Source: Candidatus Bathyarchaeia archaeon
GTDB lineage: Archaea; Thermoproteota; Bathyarchaeia; Bathyarchaeales; Bathycorpusculaceae
NCBI GenBank assembly: GCA_049512075.1
Contig: JBEKXL010000004.1
Coordinates: forward strand, 32,001-96,000
Length of the DNA: 64,000 nucleotides
Direction: 5' to 3'
Part shown: positions 3,894-17,361 of the stretch, one piece after another
Position numbering within the stretch: position 1 is the stretch's first letter
Layout: each line of letters opens with the position of its first letter
Notes under the pieces: generated by a model
Seen by the model: only the letters and a program-made list of their open reading frames with translations
What the model was told of the DNA's origin: nothing
Databases searched by the model: none
Translations under genes and position numbers: made by a program

Positions 3894-4389
3894 GTGGTAA
3901 ATGAGACTTACACTGGCCATGTTGCTGGTGTTCTCAAAGAAATAGGAGGCTTCGGCGTCGGCGCCGTCGTAATCTGTTCTGGCAACATCTTGCTTGAAAA
4001 AAGAAAGAACGAGCCGGGAAAGGGAAAATGGAGTATCTCCGGCGGCATTGTAGAGTTGGGTGAGGAGGCAGAGCAGACGGCGGTAAGGGAAGTTAGGGAA
4101 GAAACAAACCTCACAGTCGAGAAGCCAGAACTCATAGACGTCGTGGACAACGTGGAACTGGACGAAAATGGAAAGGTCAAGTACCCATTTTGTTATAATC
4201 GACTATCTTGTGCGACTCAAAGGTGGAAGGCTCAAGGCTTCGAGTGATGCTGCGGAACTAAGATGGGTCAGACTGGACAATGTGGAAAACTATGCTCTGA
4301 CTAGGACTTTTCGGGAATTTTTTACTAAAAACTACGAAAGACTAAAGAATTTTGATTCGTGCAAGCGCCAATCAAACCACAAGAACTAG
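3894..4389 (+). pseudogene. NUDIX hydrolase split by a +1 frameshift (possible sequencing error)
   Basis: Nudix box GGIVELGEEAEQTAVREVREETNL in 3894-4247; C-terminus HFVIIDYLV...ASSDAAELRWV in another frame (4168-4389); removing one C from TACCCAT (~4183) gives KVKYHFVIIDY. Confidence 0.8.
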
Positions 4390-4459: not shown

Positions 4460-5926
4460 TTATTGATTGGTGGCGGATGTGAAGAAGAGTCTTGTTTCTC
4501 CCATTGTTTTCACGTCCAGAGCCTTGACTCTTGCGACTATTGGAAAGTCCCTCACAGCTCTCCCGAGTGCTAGGCAGTAGTGAGGTGGAAGGTCTCGGGC
4601 GATGGACCTTACTGTCTCAGCGTCCACGCGGGCGGCTCGGGAAACTACGTCCAGATCGTGTTCGTTTGTGAAGTTGAAGAGGAAAATGTTGTCGGCTTGG
4701 CGGTAGATGTTCTCGCGTATGGTGTCGGGCTGGTTGGTTATGAACGTGGTGAAGATTCCGAAGTGACGCATGCGCGTTACGATGTCGTCCCAGTAGGTTT
4801 CACGAAGGTAGAGGTGTGCTTCTTCGGCGAAGAGGAATACAGCCTTGAGTTTCGAGCTGCTCAAAGATTCAACGAGTTTTCCTAGAACGTATTCAACCAC
4901 TATCTGTCGATCAATAGATGAGGTATTTCGGAGGTTCATTATTATGGCGCCGCCGTGGTCTCTGGTCTTAAGCAGGTACTCTTCGAGTGATGTGGCTTCG
5001 GCGATATTGTCCGTGAAAATTCCTGAGTTGACTAGAGCATGGTAGCGTGAGAACAGTGCGTCTCGGACGTGTTGGTTGCAGTTCCAGCTTCGGATTGTTT
5101 CGCCCAACTCATGGAGTGTAAGGTTGTCCCTCTCTTTGAGCGCTATCCATATCCCTCTGAACTCGCGGGCGGACGTTCCTGGCAAGTGAAGTGCGTGTAT
5201 GAGAATCCCGAGCATCACGTGGAGGTTCAACTCTTTGAGGGCCAGTTTGAAGTTTTGGGAAGGCGTCAGGACGTGAATCTTGTCGTAGTTTGCGTTTCTC
5301 TTTCCGTCGCCTGTTAATCCGAGGCTCAGATATTCGCCGTTGAGGTCGAAGACCACTATCGTTGCTTTGTATCCGACCAGGTTTACCATTAGAAGCTTCG
5401 ACAAGTGGGACTTGCCTGTTTCCTTCTTTCCAGTTATTATGTTCAATCTTCCGTCAAGCGACGTGGCGTCAATCGTTAGCAGCGATGAGTCTTTTGTTCC
5501 ACCTATCACTATTGGGAGTTTGCCGTCAATCTTGGCGAGTTTCAGCAGAGTTGGAAGTGGAAGCTTTTTTATCGTCGACTGGGAACGTGAGGGAAGCCAT
5601 GAGCTGCTCGGGTTTAAACCGTCATTCTCGGCTGTTGCACGGATTTTGCAGATGAGTAAACTGGCGTCCTGAATATACGAGATATGTGGGGCAATCTCCA
5701 AGGGGTCAACGTCTTCACCTTTGATTAATTCTTCCCCGTCTGGGAGGCTTCGAAGCAGTTCTTCAAGCACGCCGGGAATGCTGGCAAACTGCACGTCGAT
5801 GACCTGCACGATGAGTGCTCTTCCAGCATCGGCATCCTCGACGAGCAGATAGTCGCCCTTCTCAACTGTCTCACCGGGGAAGCTTAAAATCTGAAGGACG
5901 TTGCCTTCTTTCCTGTAGAGTTTCAT
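4460..5926 (-). CDS. herA: HerA/FtsK-superfamily ATPase (DUF87), HerA helicase-like
   Basis: N-terminal HAS-barrel-like region, Walker A GKKETGKS, VFDLNGEY, Walker B FAEEAH, Arg finger RMRHFG, ITNQP. Confidence 0.85.
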   Translation of the reverse strand: MKLYRKEGNVLQILSFPGETVEKGDYLLVEDADAGRALIVQVIDVQFASIPGVLEELLRSLPDGEELIKGEDVDPLEIAPHISYIQDASLLICKIRATAENDGLNPSSSWLPSRSQSTIKKLPLPTLLKLAKIDGKLPIVIGGTKDSSLLTIDATSLDGRLNIITGKKETGKSHLSKLLMVNLVGYKATIVVFDLNGEYLSLGLTGDGKRNANYDKIHVLTPSQNFKLALKELNLHVMLGILIHALHLPGTSAREFRGIWIALKERDNLTLHELGETIRSWNCNQHVRDALFSRYHALVNSGIFTDNIAEATSLEEYLLKTRDHGGAIIMNLRNTSSIDRQIVVEYVLGKLVESLSSSKLKAVFLFAEEAHLYLRETYWDDIVTRMRHFGIFTTFITNQPDTIRENIYRQADNIFLFNFTNEHDLDVVSRAARVDAETVRSIARDLPPHYCLALGRAVRDFPIVARVKALDVKTMGETRLFFTSATNQ

Positions 5927-7008
5927 GAGTAGCCTTCTCCCTTGCCGAACAATCCAAACAGAAGCCTATGCATGTCTGGCCTGTTGATGATTTGAAGCCC
6001 AAATCTCCTCGTGACGAAATGCTGCATCGCTAGCACTTCATTGGCCGTGAACGTGCACAAAATGTGAGCCAGACGCAGAGTTTCGGGATAGCTTTCCGCA
6101 AACAGGTCGTTTCCTAGGAGTTTTTCAACGGCCTCGATCCGCGGCTCAGGCGGAACTTCTTTATCTATGTCCAGTCTGAAAGCAAGGTTCCCCTTGGTCA
6201 ACCTGGCCACATAAACGTCGCCGAGCAGGACCATTGGGGGCTTGAGCCTCAAGCCTTCTGTCTCAAGCAGAAAGGGAGGCTTATGCTCCGGCAGCAGGTC
6301 TGTTATGCGGTGTCCGTTCACCCTCAGGTTCGTCATTTTCGAAAAGGCTAGAACGACGTTGTCTCCCTTTCTTGCCGTGTCAAGTATTTCTCTCATGCGA
6401 TGCGTTGGAGTTTCAGCGGTTCCCGCTGTTAGTGAACCGTCGAAGAGTATTAGTCCGTTGTTCATGGTTTTCGCGGCCATCGTTTGAAGCCAACGTTCGA
6501 GGAGGCTCGCTATCCGTGTGGGCATCTGGAGAATGCTTGGTGCGCCTTGGTGGCTGTGCTCGTGTAGGGAATTGAAGTACGTTCTTTCCAGCGTTTCGTA
6601 GACTTGTTTCTTGTTTTCCTCGGTGACGTGGAATATGAATGGCCCGAATCGCATGTACCTGTAGCGTCTGTTTTGCTTCCAAACGTTTGCACCCCTGACG
6701 GCTATCACGATGCCCGTGCTTGTTTCGCCAATCTTTATGGTCGACGTGTCCACGGCCGCGACGATTTTTTCCTTGCGGGATGGATTTAGAGGCAATGGTT
6801 CAAGCTTAAGCCTTAGTGTTTCGTTGTGCATGTCTGCGCTGTTGAATTGTTGAACGCTTTGTTGATTTAGTTGAAATGCATGGTCGTGTGCGTGTTTGAG
6901 TGAGTGCAGGCTTAATTCGATGAACTGATGGGGTAATGTTGTGTCCATGGTGGATTGTGGAAAGTTATATTTTGGTGTTGTTGCAATAGGGTATTGTTCA
7001 ATCACCAA
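5923..7008 (-). CDS. nurA: NurA-family 5'-3' nuclease
   Basis: AAVDTS, LFDGSL, AFSK, YPETLRLAH motifs; 4-bp ATGA overlap with herA. Confidence 0.8.
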   Translation of the reverse strand: MVIEQYPIATTPKYNFPQSTMDTTLPHQFIELSLHSLKHAHDHAFQLNQQSVQQFNSADMHNETLRLKLEPLPLNPSRKEKIVAAVDTSTIKIGETSTGIVIAVRGANVWKQNRRYRYMRFGPFIFHVTEENKKQVYETLERTYFNSLHEHSHQGAPSILQMPTRIASLLERWLQTMAAKTMNNGLILFDGSLTAGTAETPTHRMREILDTARKGDNVVLAFSKMTNLRVNGHRITDLLPEHKPPFLLETEGLRLKPPMVLLGDVYVARLTKGNLAFRLDIDKEVPPEPRIEAVEKLLGNDLFAESYPETLRLAHILCTFTANEVLAMQHFVTRRFGLQIINRPDMHRLLFGLFGKGEGYS

Positions 7009-7098
7009 GATTCACCAATAGCCAATTGTTTAGGGAAGGTATATTTAAGTGTTGCGCATGAACAAGATGCGCAATACAATAAACAACAAGGTGAGAGG

Positions 7099-7500
7099 TT
7101 GGTAGACAAAGAAACAAAGCCGCCGATACGAGTAAAAATGAAGATAGGAGAAGTCGAATTCGAAATCGAATGCCAAGAAGACCAGCTGCAGTCGACGGTG
7201 GACAAAATCCTTTCAACAGTAACCGACAAACTAAAAGAAACATCATTGATGACGGAAAGGGCCGCACAGCCGCGTAGGGCAGAAACCTGCAAGGGCATAA
7301 TACAGAAGCTATGGGAGGAAGGCTGGTTCTCCACTGCAAAAGGCCTCAGCGAAGTCCATAGCGAACTGGCAAGACGTGGGTTCCACTACGACCGCACTGC
7401 CGTCGCCCATGCTCTCATAGACCTAGTCAAAGACGGAATACTGACAAGAGAAGGAAAACCACGCAGGTATCAATACGCCCAGAAAAGGCCGCCTCCATAA
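7099..7500 (+). CDS. Hypothetical protein, N-terminal beta-hairpin/helix + C-terminal winged helix
   Basis: Likely TTG start at 7099 after GGTGAGAGG; IRVKMKIGEVEFEIE; C-terminal EVHSELARRG..YDRTAVAHALIDLVKDGILTREG wHTH pattern. Confidence 0.7.
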   Translation: MVDKETKPPIRVKMKIGEVEFEIECQEDQLQSTVDKILSTVTDKLKETSLMTERAAQPRRAETCKGIIQKLWEEGWFSTAKGLSEVHSELARRGFHYDRTAVAHALIDLVKDGILTREGKPRRYQYAQKRPPP

Positions 7501-7595
7501 CCTGCTTCATCCATCAAGTTTTCCCAACATGTCAGGCGAGGCTAGTTTCTGTCGCCTGTTCAGCATCCTGAAAGCAGATTGGAAACACGAAAGGC

Positions 7596-8168
7596 TTAGT
7601 AGTCCATTTTCACCCTGATTCTTGGAATAGTATCCTTCTGCATCTGCATAAGACCGAAGGTTGTGATCCTGTATTTTTCGTCGGGAGTCTTCGCGGCTGT
7701 CTGGTTCTTGACCAGTTCTCCCAGCCGGGTGCTTGCAATCTTTGCGTCTTTGCCGAGCTTGCCCTGCAGTTCCTCTTTCGAAAGCGCGTCTGTTTCAGCA
7801 TTGCCCAGCTGATGGGCAAGGTAACCTGCCAGAAGTAGCAGGCTTAAGGTCTCGTTGTCTGTCAGCTTATTCCTCGGAACAAGCAGGCATGGCCCTTCCT
7901 TCGCAAAAGTGATGATGCCTTCAGAGTCTTTGGCCAGCTTCTGCAGGTCAACGTTCAGCATCAGCTTCTGTGCAACCTCAAAAGACGGCAAGAACTCGTT
8001 GAAAAACCTGTTTAAACTCAACCAAACCGATTCAACGTTTCCAGAAAACTTCTTCTCAACACCCCTATACCTGACCTCCACGGTCAACTCGTCCTTATCT
8101 TCGCCTCTGCGACTCTGAGGAGGCTCGCTTGCGGAGGCGGCGCAGTCTTTACCCAACTTCCATTCCAC
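7596..8168 (-). CDS. Hypothetical protein with C-terminal winged helix
   Basis: LTVEVRYRGVEKKFSG; C-terminal LSKEELQGKLG...STRLGELVK...YRITTFG wHTH pattern. Confidence 0.7.
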   Translation of the reverse strand: MEWKLGKDCAASASEPPQSRRGEDKDELTVEVRYRGVEKKFSGNVESVWLSLNRFFNEFLPSFEVAQKLMLNVDLQKLAKDSEGIITFAKEGPCLLVPRNKLTDNETLSLLLLAGYLAHQLGNAETDALSKEELQGKLGKDAKIASTRLGELVKNQTAAKTPDEKYRITTFGLMQMQKDTIPRIRVKMDY

Positions 8169-8274
8169 CCTGCCAGCTCTGATTGTTGGCGATGGTTAAA
8201 AAGCGTTGTCAAACGCCGTGACGAGGCGATTCAAATCAAGAAAGCATGAACCACGATGCGTTTGCCGAGGCTTT

Positions 8275-8748
8275 TCATTGGCCTATTTTGCTTTTGAGCT
8301 TGTTTAGAACGTCGTCTTCTACCCATCTCTCGCCCTGCATGGTGAGCTTGAACTCGGGTCTGTTCGGGTCCGGCTTGAACACTTGGCCTCTCTTGGTCAT
8401 CTCGTTTAAGCGTGCGGGGACCATGCATTTTATTCCGCTTGATTCTAGAAGCTTCGTTATCTGCGCTGCTGTTCTCTTCTTCCCCTCTGAGGCGTACAGC
8501 GTCAAACCTATTGCTTCATAGTGAGTCAGGTTTTCGCGGGCTATGATGACGGGACCTTCGGTCGTGGACTCAACGATGCCTTTGAGTTGAACGCCTGAGG
8601 GCATCAAACGGTTCTGGACGAAACCTCCAACCTTTTCCACGAAACCTTCGGGGAAAGCCTCAAGAATCTTCAGTATTTCTTGCGGGTTTTCAGCCTCGAC
8701 AACGATTTCGCCGAAGGGCGTCTTAACTCGTACTTCAACCTTGCTCAT
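8275..8748 (-). CDS. Hypothetical protein with C-terminal winged helix (similar to 7596-8168)
   Basis: VEVRVKTPFGEIVVE; GIVESTTEGPVII..ENLTHYEAIGLTL matches GIITFAKEGPCLL..NKLTDNETLSLLL of the neighbour; ARLNEMTKRG...FKLTMQG. Confidence 0.75.
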   Translation of the reverse strand: MSKVEVRVKTPFGEIVVEAENPQEILKILEAFPEGFVEKVGGFVQNRLMPSGVQLKGIVESTTEGPVIIARENLTHYEAIGLTLYASEGKKRTAAQITKLLESSGIKCMVPARLNEMTKRGQVFKPDPNRPEFKLTMQGERWVEDDVLNKLKSKIGQ

Positions 8749-9138
8749 TTGCGCCTCTCCTCAAGCCGAAAGCTTCCTTCTCAGCCAGAAACTCAACAAA
8801 TGGCGACATCTCCCACATTAACCCCTCTTTTTCTTTTCCTATTCATTCCAATGATGGTAATAACGTTTTTGTCCTAACAGGCGTTTTGCGCGTGCCCTTT
8901 TTTTGTTTCGTTCAATGCTCAGGCAAGTATGAGCTTTTTTCTAAGTTCCTGAACTTGATGTCCCTGGACTAAGAGTGCTCCGTGTTGCAAGTGTGACTTC
9001 TGTAACCAGCGCACACCTTCAACGCTATCCATCAATTCAGCAACAAGCACAGAGAAACAGGAGTGGAAACGTCCCAAGCGTCCTAAGCGTCCAGCGTAGT
9101 CCCCTCAGAGCCCGTGACCCGCGCGGGCGAAATGAATG

Positions 9139-9282
9139 CTAGTAAGATTGGCGCGCACTGACTAACTGCCGGAAGCATCGTTCGCATAGGTCCTGTCCAG
9201 ATATTTGAATGATCTCAGAGTCTGAAAGCATCTTTCCGCACCTGTCACAAGCTATTTCCCTCGGAATTGGCGTGCTTCCCAT
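9139..9282 (-). CDS. 47-aa zinc-finger microprotein (CxxC-x17-CxxC)
   Basis: Manual translation MGSTPIPREIACDRCGKMLSDSEIIQISGQDLCERCFRQLVSARQSY; GAGGA just upstream; below ORF-track cutoff. Confidence 0.6.
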   Translation of the reverse strand: MGSTPIPREIACDRCGKMLSDSEIIQISGQDLCERCFRQLVSARQSY

Positions 9283-9411
9283 GTTCCTCACAATTCGGAT
9301 AGGGCCTTTCTAGCGCTTAAACAACATTCCGAGGCCGTCAATATATCAAAGTGCGTTCGTCAGCTGGCGCACGCTCGCGCGCTATCTTAGGAAGACGAAA
9401 CGATGGGAGTG

Positions 9412-9903
9412 CTAACGTTTCGATTGGAAAACTTCGGTTTCAGCCAGAATGTAAACGTAGCCAGAATCGGTGTTCCACCGCCTAATTTTCTCCTTCTTAA
9501 CCAGATCAAGCAGAACTCCTGCGAGCGTCCGCCCGGGATACTCCAGGCCGTTGGCCTTCAAAGCGTCCCTCAACTCCTCAACCGTGCGTGGACGCCACTT
9601 TCCCCAATCAGTCTCGAGAAGCCTCAGGATGGCCTCGTCGCAGGTTTCCGCGGCTGAAATCCTGGGGTATTTTTCGGAGGCGGTCTTCTCGTCCTTTGGT
9701 GCCTCCGTCTTCACTGTGAGTGTTGCGAACTTTTTGGGTCTCACAGCGTCGAAAGCCTTTTGGACATTGCTGATTAGGCTGGATAAATCCTCGATGGTCT
9801 TTAGAACTTCGTCGCGGGTGCCTCCGACCTCAATTTCGCACTCGCCCAGCTTCACCCGAAAAACGAAACTGCTGCCCACTGCTTTCCCCTTCTTCGCCCT
9901 CAA
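9412..9903 (-). CDS. Hypothetical protein, N-terminal beta-hairpin/helix + C-terminal winged helix (similar to 7099-7500)
   Basis: FRVKLGECEIEV; AETCDEAILRLLETDW vs AETCKGIIQKLWEEGW; LAGVLLDLVKKEKIRR. Confidence 0.75.
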   Translation of the reverse strand: MRAKKGKAVGSSFVFRVKLGECEIEVGGTRDEVLKTIEDLSSLISNVQKAFDAVRPKKFATLTVKTEAPKDEKTASEKYPRISAAETCDEAILRLLETDWGKWRPRTVEELRDALKANGLEYPGRTLAGVLLDLVKKEKIRRWNTDSGYVYILAETEVFQSKR

Positions 9904-11192: not shown

Positions 11193-11673
11193 TCAATTGC
11201 GTAGCCGATTTGACCTTTCTCTTTCAACGATAACGCGGGTTGGAGCAATCAGCACAGATTTCTTTATTCGATCCGCTATCTTTGTGACCCCTCTTACAGG
11301 GCTGATATTCTCCATTACTCGTTCTAGCTCGATAGTTGCATGGCTCACAGCATCCCTTGGATTTCTCATTCGCCGCACCTAAAACCTCTTCGAATTTCCT
11401 CGCGCGCTCAGACACTTGGAACTCTCTATCGCCTCTGTTCTTTTCTGTTTTATCTTGCTCAGCTTTCTTTTGGATTTTTCTATCGCTTTTGTCCTTCTCT
11501 TTTCTACCCTTCTCAGCTTTATCTTGGAGTTTTTTATCGCTCCTAGCCTTCTCTTTTTTATCTTTCTCAGCTTTGTCTTGAAGTTTCTTGTCACCCTTGT
11601 CCTTTTCTTTTCTAACGTTCTCAGCTCTACCTCTTTCAGCCTTTTCAGCGCGTTCAATCTCTTTTCTGCTCAT
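11193..11673 (-). CDS. Charged 18-aa-repeat protein, probably frameshifted near 11378
   Basis: ORF 11224-11673 is K/E/D/R-rich; a more protein-like tail RRMRNPRDAVSHATIELERVMENI continues in ORF 11193-11378. Confidence 0.5.
11416..11610 (-). repeat. ~3.6 x 54-bp imperfect coding tandem repeat
   Basis: KEKDKGDKKLQDKAEKDK / KEKARSDKKLQDKAEKGR / KEKDKSDRKIQKKAEQDK / TEKNRGDREFQ. Confidence 0.8.
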
Positions 11674-15453: not shown

Positions 15454-17361
15454 TCACTTTTTGCAGGCGTGTTCCAGTCTCTTCTTGACGAGTTCACTCA
15501 CTGATGCCGCGTTGGCTTTGCCTCGAACTTCTTTCATGACCATGCCTATCAGTGGTCCGAAGGCGTTTGCTCTCCGCTCTTGAATCATGCTTCTGTTTCG
15601 TTCTATTAAAGAGTCGACGACCTTTTCAAGTTCTTCGCTGGAAAGCATCTTCAGGCCAATCTTGTTGATTGCGTCTTTCACGGTGCTGTTTTCATGTTGT
15701 GAAAGCCAGCTGACGATTCCAGGGACAGCCTCTTTTGTCAATCTTCCCGAACCCACGGCTCTGAAGACTTCTCTTATTTGATTGTCAGAGACCTTTTCAA
15801 CGCGGACACCGTCACGTTTCAGTGCTTTCGCCGTTTCTGTCATGAAAGCGGCCACGGTCGTCGGCGAAACGTTACTCTCTTTAACGGTGGTTTCGAACAA
15901 TTCACCGTACTCGGAATCAAGAATTTGCTTGGCCAATTTCTGATTCAGATTATACGTTTTGGTCAGCCGCTCAAGTTTCTGTTCTGGAAGTTCTGGCAGC
16001 CTGAGGCTAACGCTTTTCACGTAGTCTTCGGCTATCTGTATGGGCGGGATGTCAGTTTCGGGATACATTCGTGCTGCTCCCGGGCGGGGCCTCATGTACC
16101 TCGTCGTTCCGTCAGCGTTTGGCGCACGAGTCTCCGCCGGCACGCCGTTCAAAGCTTCTCGTGCTCTTTCCACAACGGCCTTTAACGCGTCTCTAGCGTT
16201 TTCAGCCTTGTCGGCAACGAACACCACGGCGTCCTCATCCTCTGCTTTGACCGTTTTCCTCAGTTCTTCAACTTCTTCTGCCGTTATGTCGTACGCTGGC
16301 ATTTCATCTGTATGGAATATGCCGCCGACTCTTCCCCAGAATCTGGCTTTGTCAGCCATTTCTGTTCCGAGGCGGAACCCTGGCATCAGCTCCCGCTTCA
16401 AGAAACCTCTGAATTTTGTCAGTTTAACCGCTAGGACTTGTTGGTTGGCATCTAGGGCTTTACGGATAACCTTGCACTTTGTCTGCTTGAACACGCGGCT
16501 GATGTCGAAGAATTCTTCTTTCAGATTCTCCTGTTTCACCGCTGTTTTGTTCAGTTCTACAGCTATTCCTATGAGGTTTATTTGTCGCTGAACTTCGTAC
16601 TCCACGACCAGAGGGACAAGGTCAAGCTCTTGGAGCCCCTTGATCTCCATGAGCGCACCGTTAGGAATCGATATGTTTATGTCCTGGCGTATAGTGCCCA
16701 AACCTCGAATCACTTTTCCAGTAGCCCTCAAGATTCTTCCGATGGCAAGAGCAACTTCCTCTGCTTCCTTCGGCGACTTTATGACAGGCGCGGTCGCAAT
16801 CTCTATCAGCGGTATGCCCAACCGATCGATGCGATAACGGGTTAGATTCCCTCCTTCCTCGCTGGTCTTTCTCGCCGCGTCCTCTTCCAAGCCGGCGTGT
16901 TGAATCGGAACGGTTTTTTCTCCCACTTTTATTTCGCCGTCTAAGGCTATTACACAGGTTCTTTGGAAGCCCGTCGTGTTGGATCCGTCTATCACCGTCT
17001 TGCGCATCACGTGAATCTCGTCAACAGGTTTGGCCTTCATCATCAGAGCCACGGTCAGAACTGTTTCGACGGCTTCGGGATTCAGCGGGTGAGGCGGCTC
17101 CTCGTCCATTTCAACAAGGCATGAGGTTGCCCTGTTGGCTTCGTAGAGGATTTTCACTCCTTTCTGAAACTCAAAATAAGCCGCGGGATCAACTTGGCCG
17201 AGCTCGCTTTGAGTGGGTCTGAGTCCGCGGAGAAAAGTTATCTCTGGCTCTTCCTTGAAGAGTTCCGGCCTGCAACTGCAGAACAACTTCGCAGAAGTAT
17301 CAAGTTGCTGGTGGATTTCCAGCCCGACTTTCAACCCGACCTTCTCATAGTCTATTTCCAT
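15454..17361 (-). CDS. gatE: Glutamyl-tRNA(Gln) amidotransferase subunit E
   Basis: GLEIHQQL, MRKTVIDGSNTTGFQRT, LEEDAARK, RGLGTIRQD, RPRPGAARMYPETD. Confidence 0.97.
   Translation of the reverse strand: MEIDYEKVGLKVGLEIHQQLDTSAKLFCSCRPELFKEEPEITFLRGLRPTQSELGQVDPAAYFEFQKGVKILYEANRATSCLVEMDEEPPHPLNPEAVETVLTVALMMKAKPVDEIHVMRKTVIDGSNTTGFQRTCVIALDGEIKVGEKTVPIQHAGLEEDAARKTSEEGGNLTRYRIDRLGIPLIEIATAPVIKSPKEAEEVALAIGRILRATGKVIRGLGTIRQDINISIPNGALMEIKGLQELDLVPLVVEYEVQRQINLIGIAVELNKTAVKQENLKEEFFDISRVFKQTKCKVIRKALDANQQVLAVKLTKFRGFLKRELMPGFRLGTEMADKARFWGRVGGIFHTDEMPAYDITAEEVEELRKTVKAEDEDAVVFVADKAENARDALKAVVERAREALNGVPAETRAPNADGTTRYMRPRPGAARMYPETDIPPIQIAEDYVKSVSLRLPELPEQKLERLTKTYNLNQKLAKQILDSEYGELFETTVKESNVSPTTVAAFMTETAKALKRDGVRVEKVSDNQIREVFRAVGSGRLTKEAVPGIVSWLSQHENSTVKDAINKIGLKMLSSEELEKVVDSLIERNRSMIQERRANAFGPLIGMVMKEVRGKANAASVSELVKKRLEHACKK

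Follow-up and report, generated by a model that had tools for sequence, protein, structure and literature searches.

A cluster of six genes was analysed in a 64-kb window, meaning the whole stretch of 64,000 nucleotides (nt) taken from contig JBEKXL010000004.1 of a Candidatus Bathyarchaeia archaeon. Bathyarchaeia is a class within Thermoproteota in GTDB. Two of the genes encode a NurA-like nuclease and a HerA-like ring ATPase. The other four, here called A, B, C and D, encode small proteins in which a predicted N-terminal β-hairpin is combined with a C-terminal winged helix-turn-helix (wHTH) domain. All six open reading frames (ORFs) had been pointed out in an earlier, sequence-only reading of this DNA and are present where that reading placed them. 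We consider it fairly likely that the window holds a vertically inherited NurA-HerA end-resection pair and four paralogs of an undescribed family, which travel with this NurA-HerA clade across the phylum. The small proteins probably control NurA-HerA or guide the pair to DNA.

The nurA and herA genes share 4 nt (5923-5926), where the stop of nurA overlaps the start of herA. Residues 170-349 of HerA match the DUF87/HerA central domain of Pfam (PF01935) with 42.4 bits, the cut-off being 23.2, and the nearest solved chain is that of Sulfolobus HerA, 4d2i (E 7e-4). The Walker A (GKKETGKS) and Walker B (FLFAEEAH) motifs, which were assigned by reading the alignment, are conserved at ≥85% in 33 HerA orthologs, and a strand-like pattern at the N-terminus is conserved in the same alignment. 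NurA scores 22.5 bits against the Pfam NurA family (PF09376, gathering score 21), the match covering profile positions 2-120 of 254, i.e. the N-terminal half only. The C-terminal 140 columns of its profile align with another NurA of this genome, located on contig C7 (hhalign, 93%). The aspartates of AVDTS and FDG and the histidine of YPxxLRLAH are conserved among the NurA orthologs and are candidate residues of an RNase H-like site. Both enzymes look intact by these marks, and the coupling of nurA and herA with recognisable catalytic motifs, claimed from the sequence alone, is borne out.

The sequence-only reading was also correct in stating that mre11 and rad50 are absent: no relative of either was found in the window by tblastn with both Mre11-Rad50 pairs of this genome (E≤1e-3). 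One of these pairs is part of a compact nurA-herA-mre11-rad50 operon (C7:5294-11241, locus L014) and the other lies at C11:57689-60987. Altogether the genome has three NurA-HerA pairs, those of the window, of C7 and of C17. The C17 pair (C17:29453-33188; L015:5454-9189) is unusually large, with a NurA-like protein of 630 amino acids (aa) and a HerA of 623 aa. This HerA scores 134 bits on the PADLOC 'Type III coevolved' HerA model and has a Pfam Zot match as well, and the pair may be a CRISPR type III accessory.

A separate locus of canonical appearance, which the sequence-only reading had allowed for, therefore does exist on C7, but it is sporadic. Clear orthologs of the C7-type HerA were found in about 11 of 150 other genomes of the class, and their identity does not follow taxonomy, being 71% in another family and 45% in the sole genome of the same family that carries one. 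The C7 set looks like an extra, patchily distributed copy that was laterally acquired. The C11-type Mre11 was detected in 47 of the 151 genomes (E≤1e-100), and its identity tracks taxonomy, with 72-79% within the family and 56-67% within the order (one exception at 38%).

The order of genes in related genomes is informative about the pair in the window. By coordinates, a C11-type mre11 lies no more than 3 kb downstream of a window-type herA, on the same strand, in 11 genomes; in one further genome (L134) it is found near a HerA of another clade. Loci L145 and L146 read gatE-C-B-D-nurA-herA-mre11-rad50 in one co-directional cluster. Locus L144, which comes from the same taxonomic order as the window, reads gatE-C-B...A<>nurA-herA-NUDIX-mre11-rad50 (<> marks divergent genes), and orthologs in L086 and L091 are linked to mre11/rad50 too. 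The window shows the same frame from gatE to herA and NUDIX as L144, minus mre11 and rad50. The synteny of the orthologs in L144-L146 thus suggests that the canonical pair of this lineage is the one in the window, and that its mre11-rad50 genes have moved to C11. The earlier notion of a stand-alone machine, serving alternative repair or defence, is not supported, because the orthologs in related families are positioned directly upstream of vertically inherited mre11-rad50 genes in a housekeeping context.

Window-type HerA orthologs occur in 88 of the 151 Bathyarchaeia genomes sampled. Of 201 genomes sampled from the phylum, 70 have such an ortholog, among them entire families of other classes; several large families lack it. 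Members of the same family share 79-84% identity with the window HerA; the figure is 60-73% for the order, about 46-61% for the class, apart from a single value of 36%, and 33-49% for other classes. Since identity drops with taxonomic distance and the neighbours of the cluster are housekeeping genes (gatE, nudix and pyrH), the cluster has apparently been inherited vertically, with losses, and is not a mobile island. The same two observations disfavour a defence island.

A, B, C and D belong to one family. BLASTP among the small ORFs gave E values of 3e-8 for A and D, 1e-3 for B and C, and 0.044 for A and C. In hhalign comparisons of family profiles, built from alignments of 12-46 orthologs, C and B were matched with a probability of 99.1 (E 5e-19), D and A with 96.8 (E 3e-10), D and C with 83.6 (E 8e-6), and D and B with only 57.8 (E 1e-4). 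Judged from their sequences, A, B, C and D are true paralogs, related beyond chance, and form two closer pairs, C/B and D/A. These are the pairs that had been proposed from shared motifs, and the quoted N-terminal strings and motifs were all found in the translations.

The shared architecture, too, was recognised correctly, as far as the AlphaFold2 models of C and D show; the winged-helix fold of A and B is assigned via homology. The model of C, with a predicted local distance difference test (pLDDT) score of 87.3, consists of a β-hairpin (residues 4-19), helices, a wHTH domain (76-135) and a long C-terminal helix. That of D (pLDDT 69.6) has a hairpin (13-28), a helix (30-53), a disordered linker and a wHTH domain (88-153). 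Residues 69-157 of C match the winged helices of MarR, PadR, AspA and F93-like chains with Z scores of 9-11. The matches of D, over residues 88-153, are weaker, with Foldseek E values from 2e-3 to 5e-2 and template modelling (TM) scores on the target of 0.5-0.8. The N-terminal β-hairpin/helix domain of C has no fold match, although all the listed matches cover residues 56-157 only and the domain was barely tested by them. The first 25 or so residues of B are unconserved, so its true start may lie further in.

None of the four proteins reaches a family cut-off in Pfam, where the best result is that of A with Penicillinase_R (19.7 bits, cut-off 22.6) and B, C and D have nothing, or in NCBIfam, where C has one weak match (13 bits, cut-off 200); PADLOC has no family-level match for them. 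The ESM Atlas matches to C with scores of ≥0.9 are exclusively clusters of 'hypothetical protein', and Bathyarchaeota is the commonest taxon in the top three. Full-text searching of the literature found no paper describing the family or its link to NurA-HerA, and in the literature searched the hairpin and winged-helix family is undescribed.

The family is widespread and strongly conserved. C is present in 109 of the 151 class genomes. D has 1062 homologs at E≤1e-3, and the 67 genome loci of D relatives are all from metagenome-assembled genomes of Bathyarchaeia/Bathyarchaeota. Identity is 67-97% in the C line and, across 17 Bathyarchaeia loci, 81-96% in the A line, compared to 60-96% for gatE. 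The recognition helix of A (YD.TAVAH.LLDLV) is nearly invariant across classes. A fifth, D-like paralog is encoded on another contig of this genome (C22:35073-35546; L122:9074-9547; hidden Markov model E 1.7e-20), away from any NurA-HerA, and overlaps a downstream ORF of 299 aa that has no Pfam match.

When 1.84 billion representatives were searched with a profile, 586 matched at E≤1e-3. Among the best 150 of these, a few are long. Two of them, each a single cluster representative, have composite structures: P0123 combines a Ser/Thr protein kinase domain with two B modules, and in P0223 the B-type module is joined to DUF488. P0166 and P0172 have about 200 unassigned residues at their N-termini. 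Separate searches for longer, fused relatives of the B and D families found none at E≤1e-3, which is weak evidence. The predicted complex of D, B, A and C, with C as the scored partner and run without controls, scored 0.00 against a mark of 0.32, which speaks neither for nor against a complex.

The association of the small genes with nurA-herA extends far beyond this genome, which supports the sequence-only reading. In the 67 loci centred on D, C is adjacent to D in 65 and B comes next in 63; in 17, a divergent A<>nurA-herA unit follows at 20 nt to 3.7 kb past B. When 18 loci of distant Bathyarchaeia were centred on HerA, genes of the small family were found directly upstream in 16, typically in the order C-B-B-(D)-nurA-herA, or else B-D-A<>nurA-herA, with overlapping or abutting ORFs; L100 and L101 have no gene of the family. 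Nearly all HerA-centred loci from other classes (17/18) read C-B-nurA-herA or B-(B)-A<>nurA-herA. The B stop overlaps the nurA ORF or lies within 8 nt of its start in L087, L109, L112, L116 and L121.

Single-protein queries split the class sample into 66 genomes with both HerA and C, 22 with HerA only, 43 with C only and 20 with neither. Twenty loci of C-only genomes revealed that a second, deeply divergent NurA-HerA clade adjoins D-C in 15 of them. In 12, D-C is followed by small winged-helix genes and then by this other clade, and in 3 the other clade completes the usual operon; the remaining 5 have no NurA-HerA within 7 kb. In loci L103, L123-L133 and L142, five winged-helix genes of 81-105 aa come after D-C on the opposite strand and face the divergent NurA-HerA. 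The two HerA clades are themselves related (hhalign, 98.4%). As read from gene neighbourhoods, then, the small family accompanies the NurA-HerA of two deeply divergent clades, with exceptions.

The short spacer between nurA and A contains what appears to be a shared control region (Table 1). It is almost invariant across the 17 Bathyarchaeia loci, and the TGNGCAA box that abuts the TATA box on the nurA side recurs in other classes of the phylum. The box and the TATA box together make a 14-nt motif, present in 28 of the 32 loci with a divergent A/nurA pair and once in the window, at this spacer. Where A is absent, the strict motif is missing at nurA. A scan of 1.64 Mb of loci gave 32 matches to the motif, 28 of them within the A<>nurA spacer, a count that is partly circular because the pattern was written from the same spacers. 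The operator box is not enriched elsewhere in the window (12 matches with ≤1 mismatch, compared to 17.6 expected), and none of its matches is upstream of D. The spacer element is the sole DNA element found tied to the cluster, and it is local. Because the recognition helix of A is nearly invariant and a conserved inverted repeat lies between A and the divergent nurA, A is probably a local regulator; on these grounds it would be an operator-binding protein acting on both promoters.

Two further repeats were noticed. An imperfect inverted repeat at 6992-7020 spans the nurA start. Of 76 loci, 11 (L019, L021, L028, L030, L035, L038, L039, L042, L051, L053 and L055) carry the palindrome CGAnATATnTCG at a distance of 60-160 nt upstream of D and account for 11 of its 16 matches in 0.96 Mb; it is absent from the window.

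Table 1. Coordinates of the NurA-HerA cluster, its control elements and syntenic neighbours in the window
Feature	Position	Strand	Description
NUDIX gene	3894..4389	+	Pfam NUDIX; syntenic neighbour, convergent with herA
herA-like ring ATPase	4460..5926	-	488 aa; divergent, vertically inherited clade
nurA-like nuclease	5923..7008	-	361 aa; Pfam NurA
TATA box TTAAATATA	7040..7048	-	About 32 nt before the start of nurA; belongs to the 14-nt motif
Inverted repeat TTGCGCAT-N7-ATGCGCAA	7052..7074		Between the divergent TATA boxes; candidate operator of A
TATA-like ACAATAAAC	7076..7084	+	15 nt before the TTG start of A; putative assignment
A	7099..7500	+	133 aa; β-hairpin and wHTH; D-like paralog; divergent from nurA; TTG start
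B	7596..8168	-	Up to 190 aa; paralog of C
C	8275..8748	-	157 aa; β-hairpin, helical N-domain, PadR/MarR-like wHTH, C-terminal helix
D	9412..9903	-	163 aa; β-hairpin, long helix, disordered linker, wHTH
gatE	15454..17361	-	Syntenic anchor upstream of the small-protein genes

The NUDIX gene beside herA, which in L144 lies between herA and mre11, is read here as two overlapping frames, 3894-4247 and 4168-4389; the gene is frameshifted or a pseudogene, or the assembly is wrong here. D and C are separated by 660 nt in the window. Since 65 of the 67 related loci have the two genes as neighbours, which abut or overlap in 63 of them, the stretch between them is an insertion. A 47-codon ORF with two CxxC pairs, resembling a zinc ribbon, is found inside it at 9139-9282 on the minus strand. 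Another ORF on that strand (11224-11673, 149 aa) consists of repeated units rich in Lys, Glu and Asp (…KKLQDKAEK…KEKDK…) and has Cys residues near its C-terminus. Rfam gave no match above the gathering score between 4000 and 16000.

The analysis shows the gene content, motifs, paralogy and synteny of the cluster, the folds of C and D, how well the operator box and the recognition helix of A are conserved, and that relatives have mre11-rad50 linked to the cluster. How the cluster works, binding events and biochemical roles alike, we infer. NurA and HerA would act as the usual nuclease-translocase and process broken DNA ends with the lineage's own Mre11-Rad50, encoded on C11 in this genome. A dimer of A would bind the inverted repeat between the divergent TATA boxes and thereby control its own gene and nurA-herA. 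B, C and D, which in most lineages form one tight operon with nurA-herA, would be further regulators or stoichiometric partners for DNA recognition or loading, and may assemble via their N-terminal hairpin domains.

Several observations weigh against the picture of an inherited end-resection pair with its own small proteins. HerA does not reach the curated equivalogs of the repair HerA, scoring 16.1 bits on NF040819 (cut-off 970) and 14.6 on NF040937 (cut-off 800); as these scores are far under the cut-offs, the window HerA belongs to a divergent clade outside the equivalogs. The Pfam match of NurA is marginal and restricted to half of the domain, and the count of the 14-nt motif is open to the circularity mentioned above. 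Among the best 150 of the 586 profile matches, none joins a small-family module to NurA or HerA. The small proteins are not strictly tied to the pair, given the 43 C-only and 22 HerA-only genomes of 151 and the 5 of 20 loci without NurA-HerA. Finally, mre11 follows herA in just 8 of the 69 loci fetched, to which L144-L146 add three, and the Mre11 match in 2 of the 8 is weak (E 2e-17 and 3e-18). Since most fetched loci have no mre11 after herA, the link to Mre11-Rad50 rests on three families. Alternatively, the pair would be a second nuclease-translocase that works apart from Mre11-Rad50 on another task, such as alternative repair or chromosome resolution or segregation, with the winged-helix proteins as its own DNA-targeting complex, as the sequence-only reading proposed. 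The absence of mre11 and rad50 from the window and from the downstream side of herA in most loci speaks for this, the genome has a complete Mre11-Rad50-linked set elsewhere, and the distance of HerA from the curated models is in line with it. Pyrobaculum, moreover, is reported to have three or more nurA-herA pairs, of which one lacks an assigned role (PMC3396285). The orthologs in a tight cluster with vertically inherited mre11-rad50 in three families speak against a separate machine, as does the absence of the C7-type set from most of the class genomes searched, where the window clade or its sister is the main NurA-HerA found. We regard a second machine as unlikely.

The role of the small proteins allows two opposite readings. 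At one extreme they would be ordinary transcription factors encoded near nurA-herA, with no physical or dedicated functional tie to the enzymes beyond the local regulation by A. Their C-terminal domains are indeed generic MarR/PadR-like winged helices, D-C(-B) is kept in genomes without window-type HerA, the palindrome that 11 of 76 loci have upstream of D would be expected under autoregulation, and single representatives join B-type modules to a protein kinase or to DUF488. Against this stand the linkage kept across classes and with two deeply divergent NurA-HerA clades, and the ORFs that overlap or abut nurA in many lineages. The paralog lines, moreover, are kept separate and strongly conserved, which is unusual for local repressors; this explanation is improbable. 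At the other extreme, B, C and D, joined in other lineages by A or by another copy of B, would form a hetero-oligomeric DNA-recognition complex and be stoichiometric new subunits of the Mre11-Rad50-HerA-NurA machine in Bathyarchaeia and related classes, more than local repressors. Such a complex might recognise ends or, by analogy to Chi and RecBCD, read a DNA sequence that gates resection. It is a tentative idea, to which we give a minor share of belief. A HerA-based system against viruses or plasmids, of the Sir2-HerA or DUF4297-HerA kind, is very improbable. The weak PADLOC matches of HerA to mad8 (9e-12) and HerA models, which together with 38.2 bits on the NCBIfam HerA_antiphage model (cut-off 800) might suggest it, are shared by the canonical HerA of C7. 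Neither NurA nor any of the four small proteins has a PADLOC match below E 0.03, and no effector partner model was matched. Housekeeping genes flank the locus, which is present in single copy and keeps its synteny across the phylum, and the defence-like HerA of this genome is a different gene, on C17. A defence function was rejected on the genomic context and the PADLOC results.

Double-strand-break processing in archaea is known mainly from a few thermophiles, such as Sulfolobus and Pyrococcus. It is of significance, then, that in a large section of the phylum, most of it uncultured, two to four paralogous proteins with hairpin and winged helix are encoded beside the NurA-HerA genes, and that an operator box before nurA-herA is conserved between classes. 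As regulators of the operon, the small proteins would offer a way into an archaeal DNA-damage response; as subunits, they would be unrecognised components of the resection machine. The analysis also corrects an annotation error that is easily made: the compact operon of canonical appearance is the sporadic copy, and the seemingly 'orphan' pair is the inherited one.

The system is NurA-HerA with Mre11-Rad50, a machine already known, in a form that is divergent and vertically inherited, to which an undescribed accessory family and a conserved operator have been added. It has in common with the mre11-rad50-linked HerA-NurA of Sulfolobus and Pyrococcus the adjacent, overlapping nurA and herA genes, the HerA central domain with Walker A and B motifs and the NurA domain, and orthologs of the window pair in related families precede mre11-rad50. 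The differences are that the window HerA is very divergent (14.6-16.1 bits compared to 800-970 on the repair-HerA models), that the order in Bathyarchaeia is nurA-herA-mre11-rad50 after two to four winged-helix genes, and that mre11-rad50 is on another contig in this genome. For the HerA-NurA systems studied so far, the literature searched offered no description of winged-helix partner proteins or local regulators.

The coexistence of several pairs has a precedent in Pyrobaculum, whose nurA-herA pairs are reported to include one for recombination, a CRISPR-linked nurA-csm6-herA and the unassigned PAE2154/2155 (PMC3396285). The present genome likewise has three pairs: one in the window, one on C7 next to mre11-rad50 and one on C17, whose HerA matches the 'Type III coevolved' model. 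The accessible part of the Pyrobaculum report mentions no winged-helix neighbours for its pairs (PMC3396285).

The small proteins themselves are closest to DNA binders of the PadR/MarR type, including AspA of pNOB8 and Sso10a. The C-terminal 80-90 residues of C superpose on these proteins with Z scores of 9-11 and a root-mean-square deviation of 2-3 Å, and C, like PadR, AspA and Sso10a, ends in a long helix. Unlike PadR and MarR, A-D reach no Pfam cut-off, and the N-terminal domain of C is without a fold match, having been barely tested. They differ above all in constituting four separately conserved paralog lines that are tied to a nuclease-motor operon.

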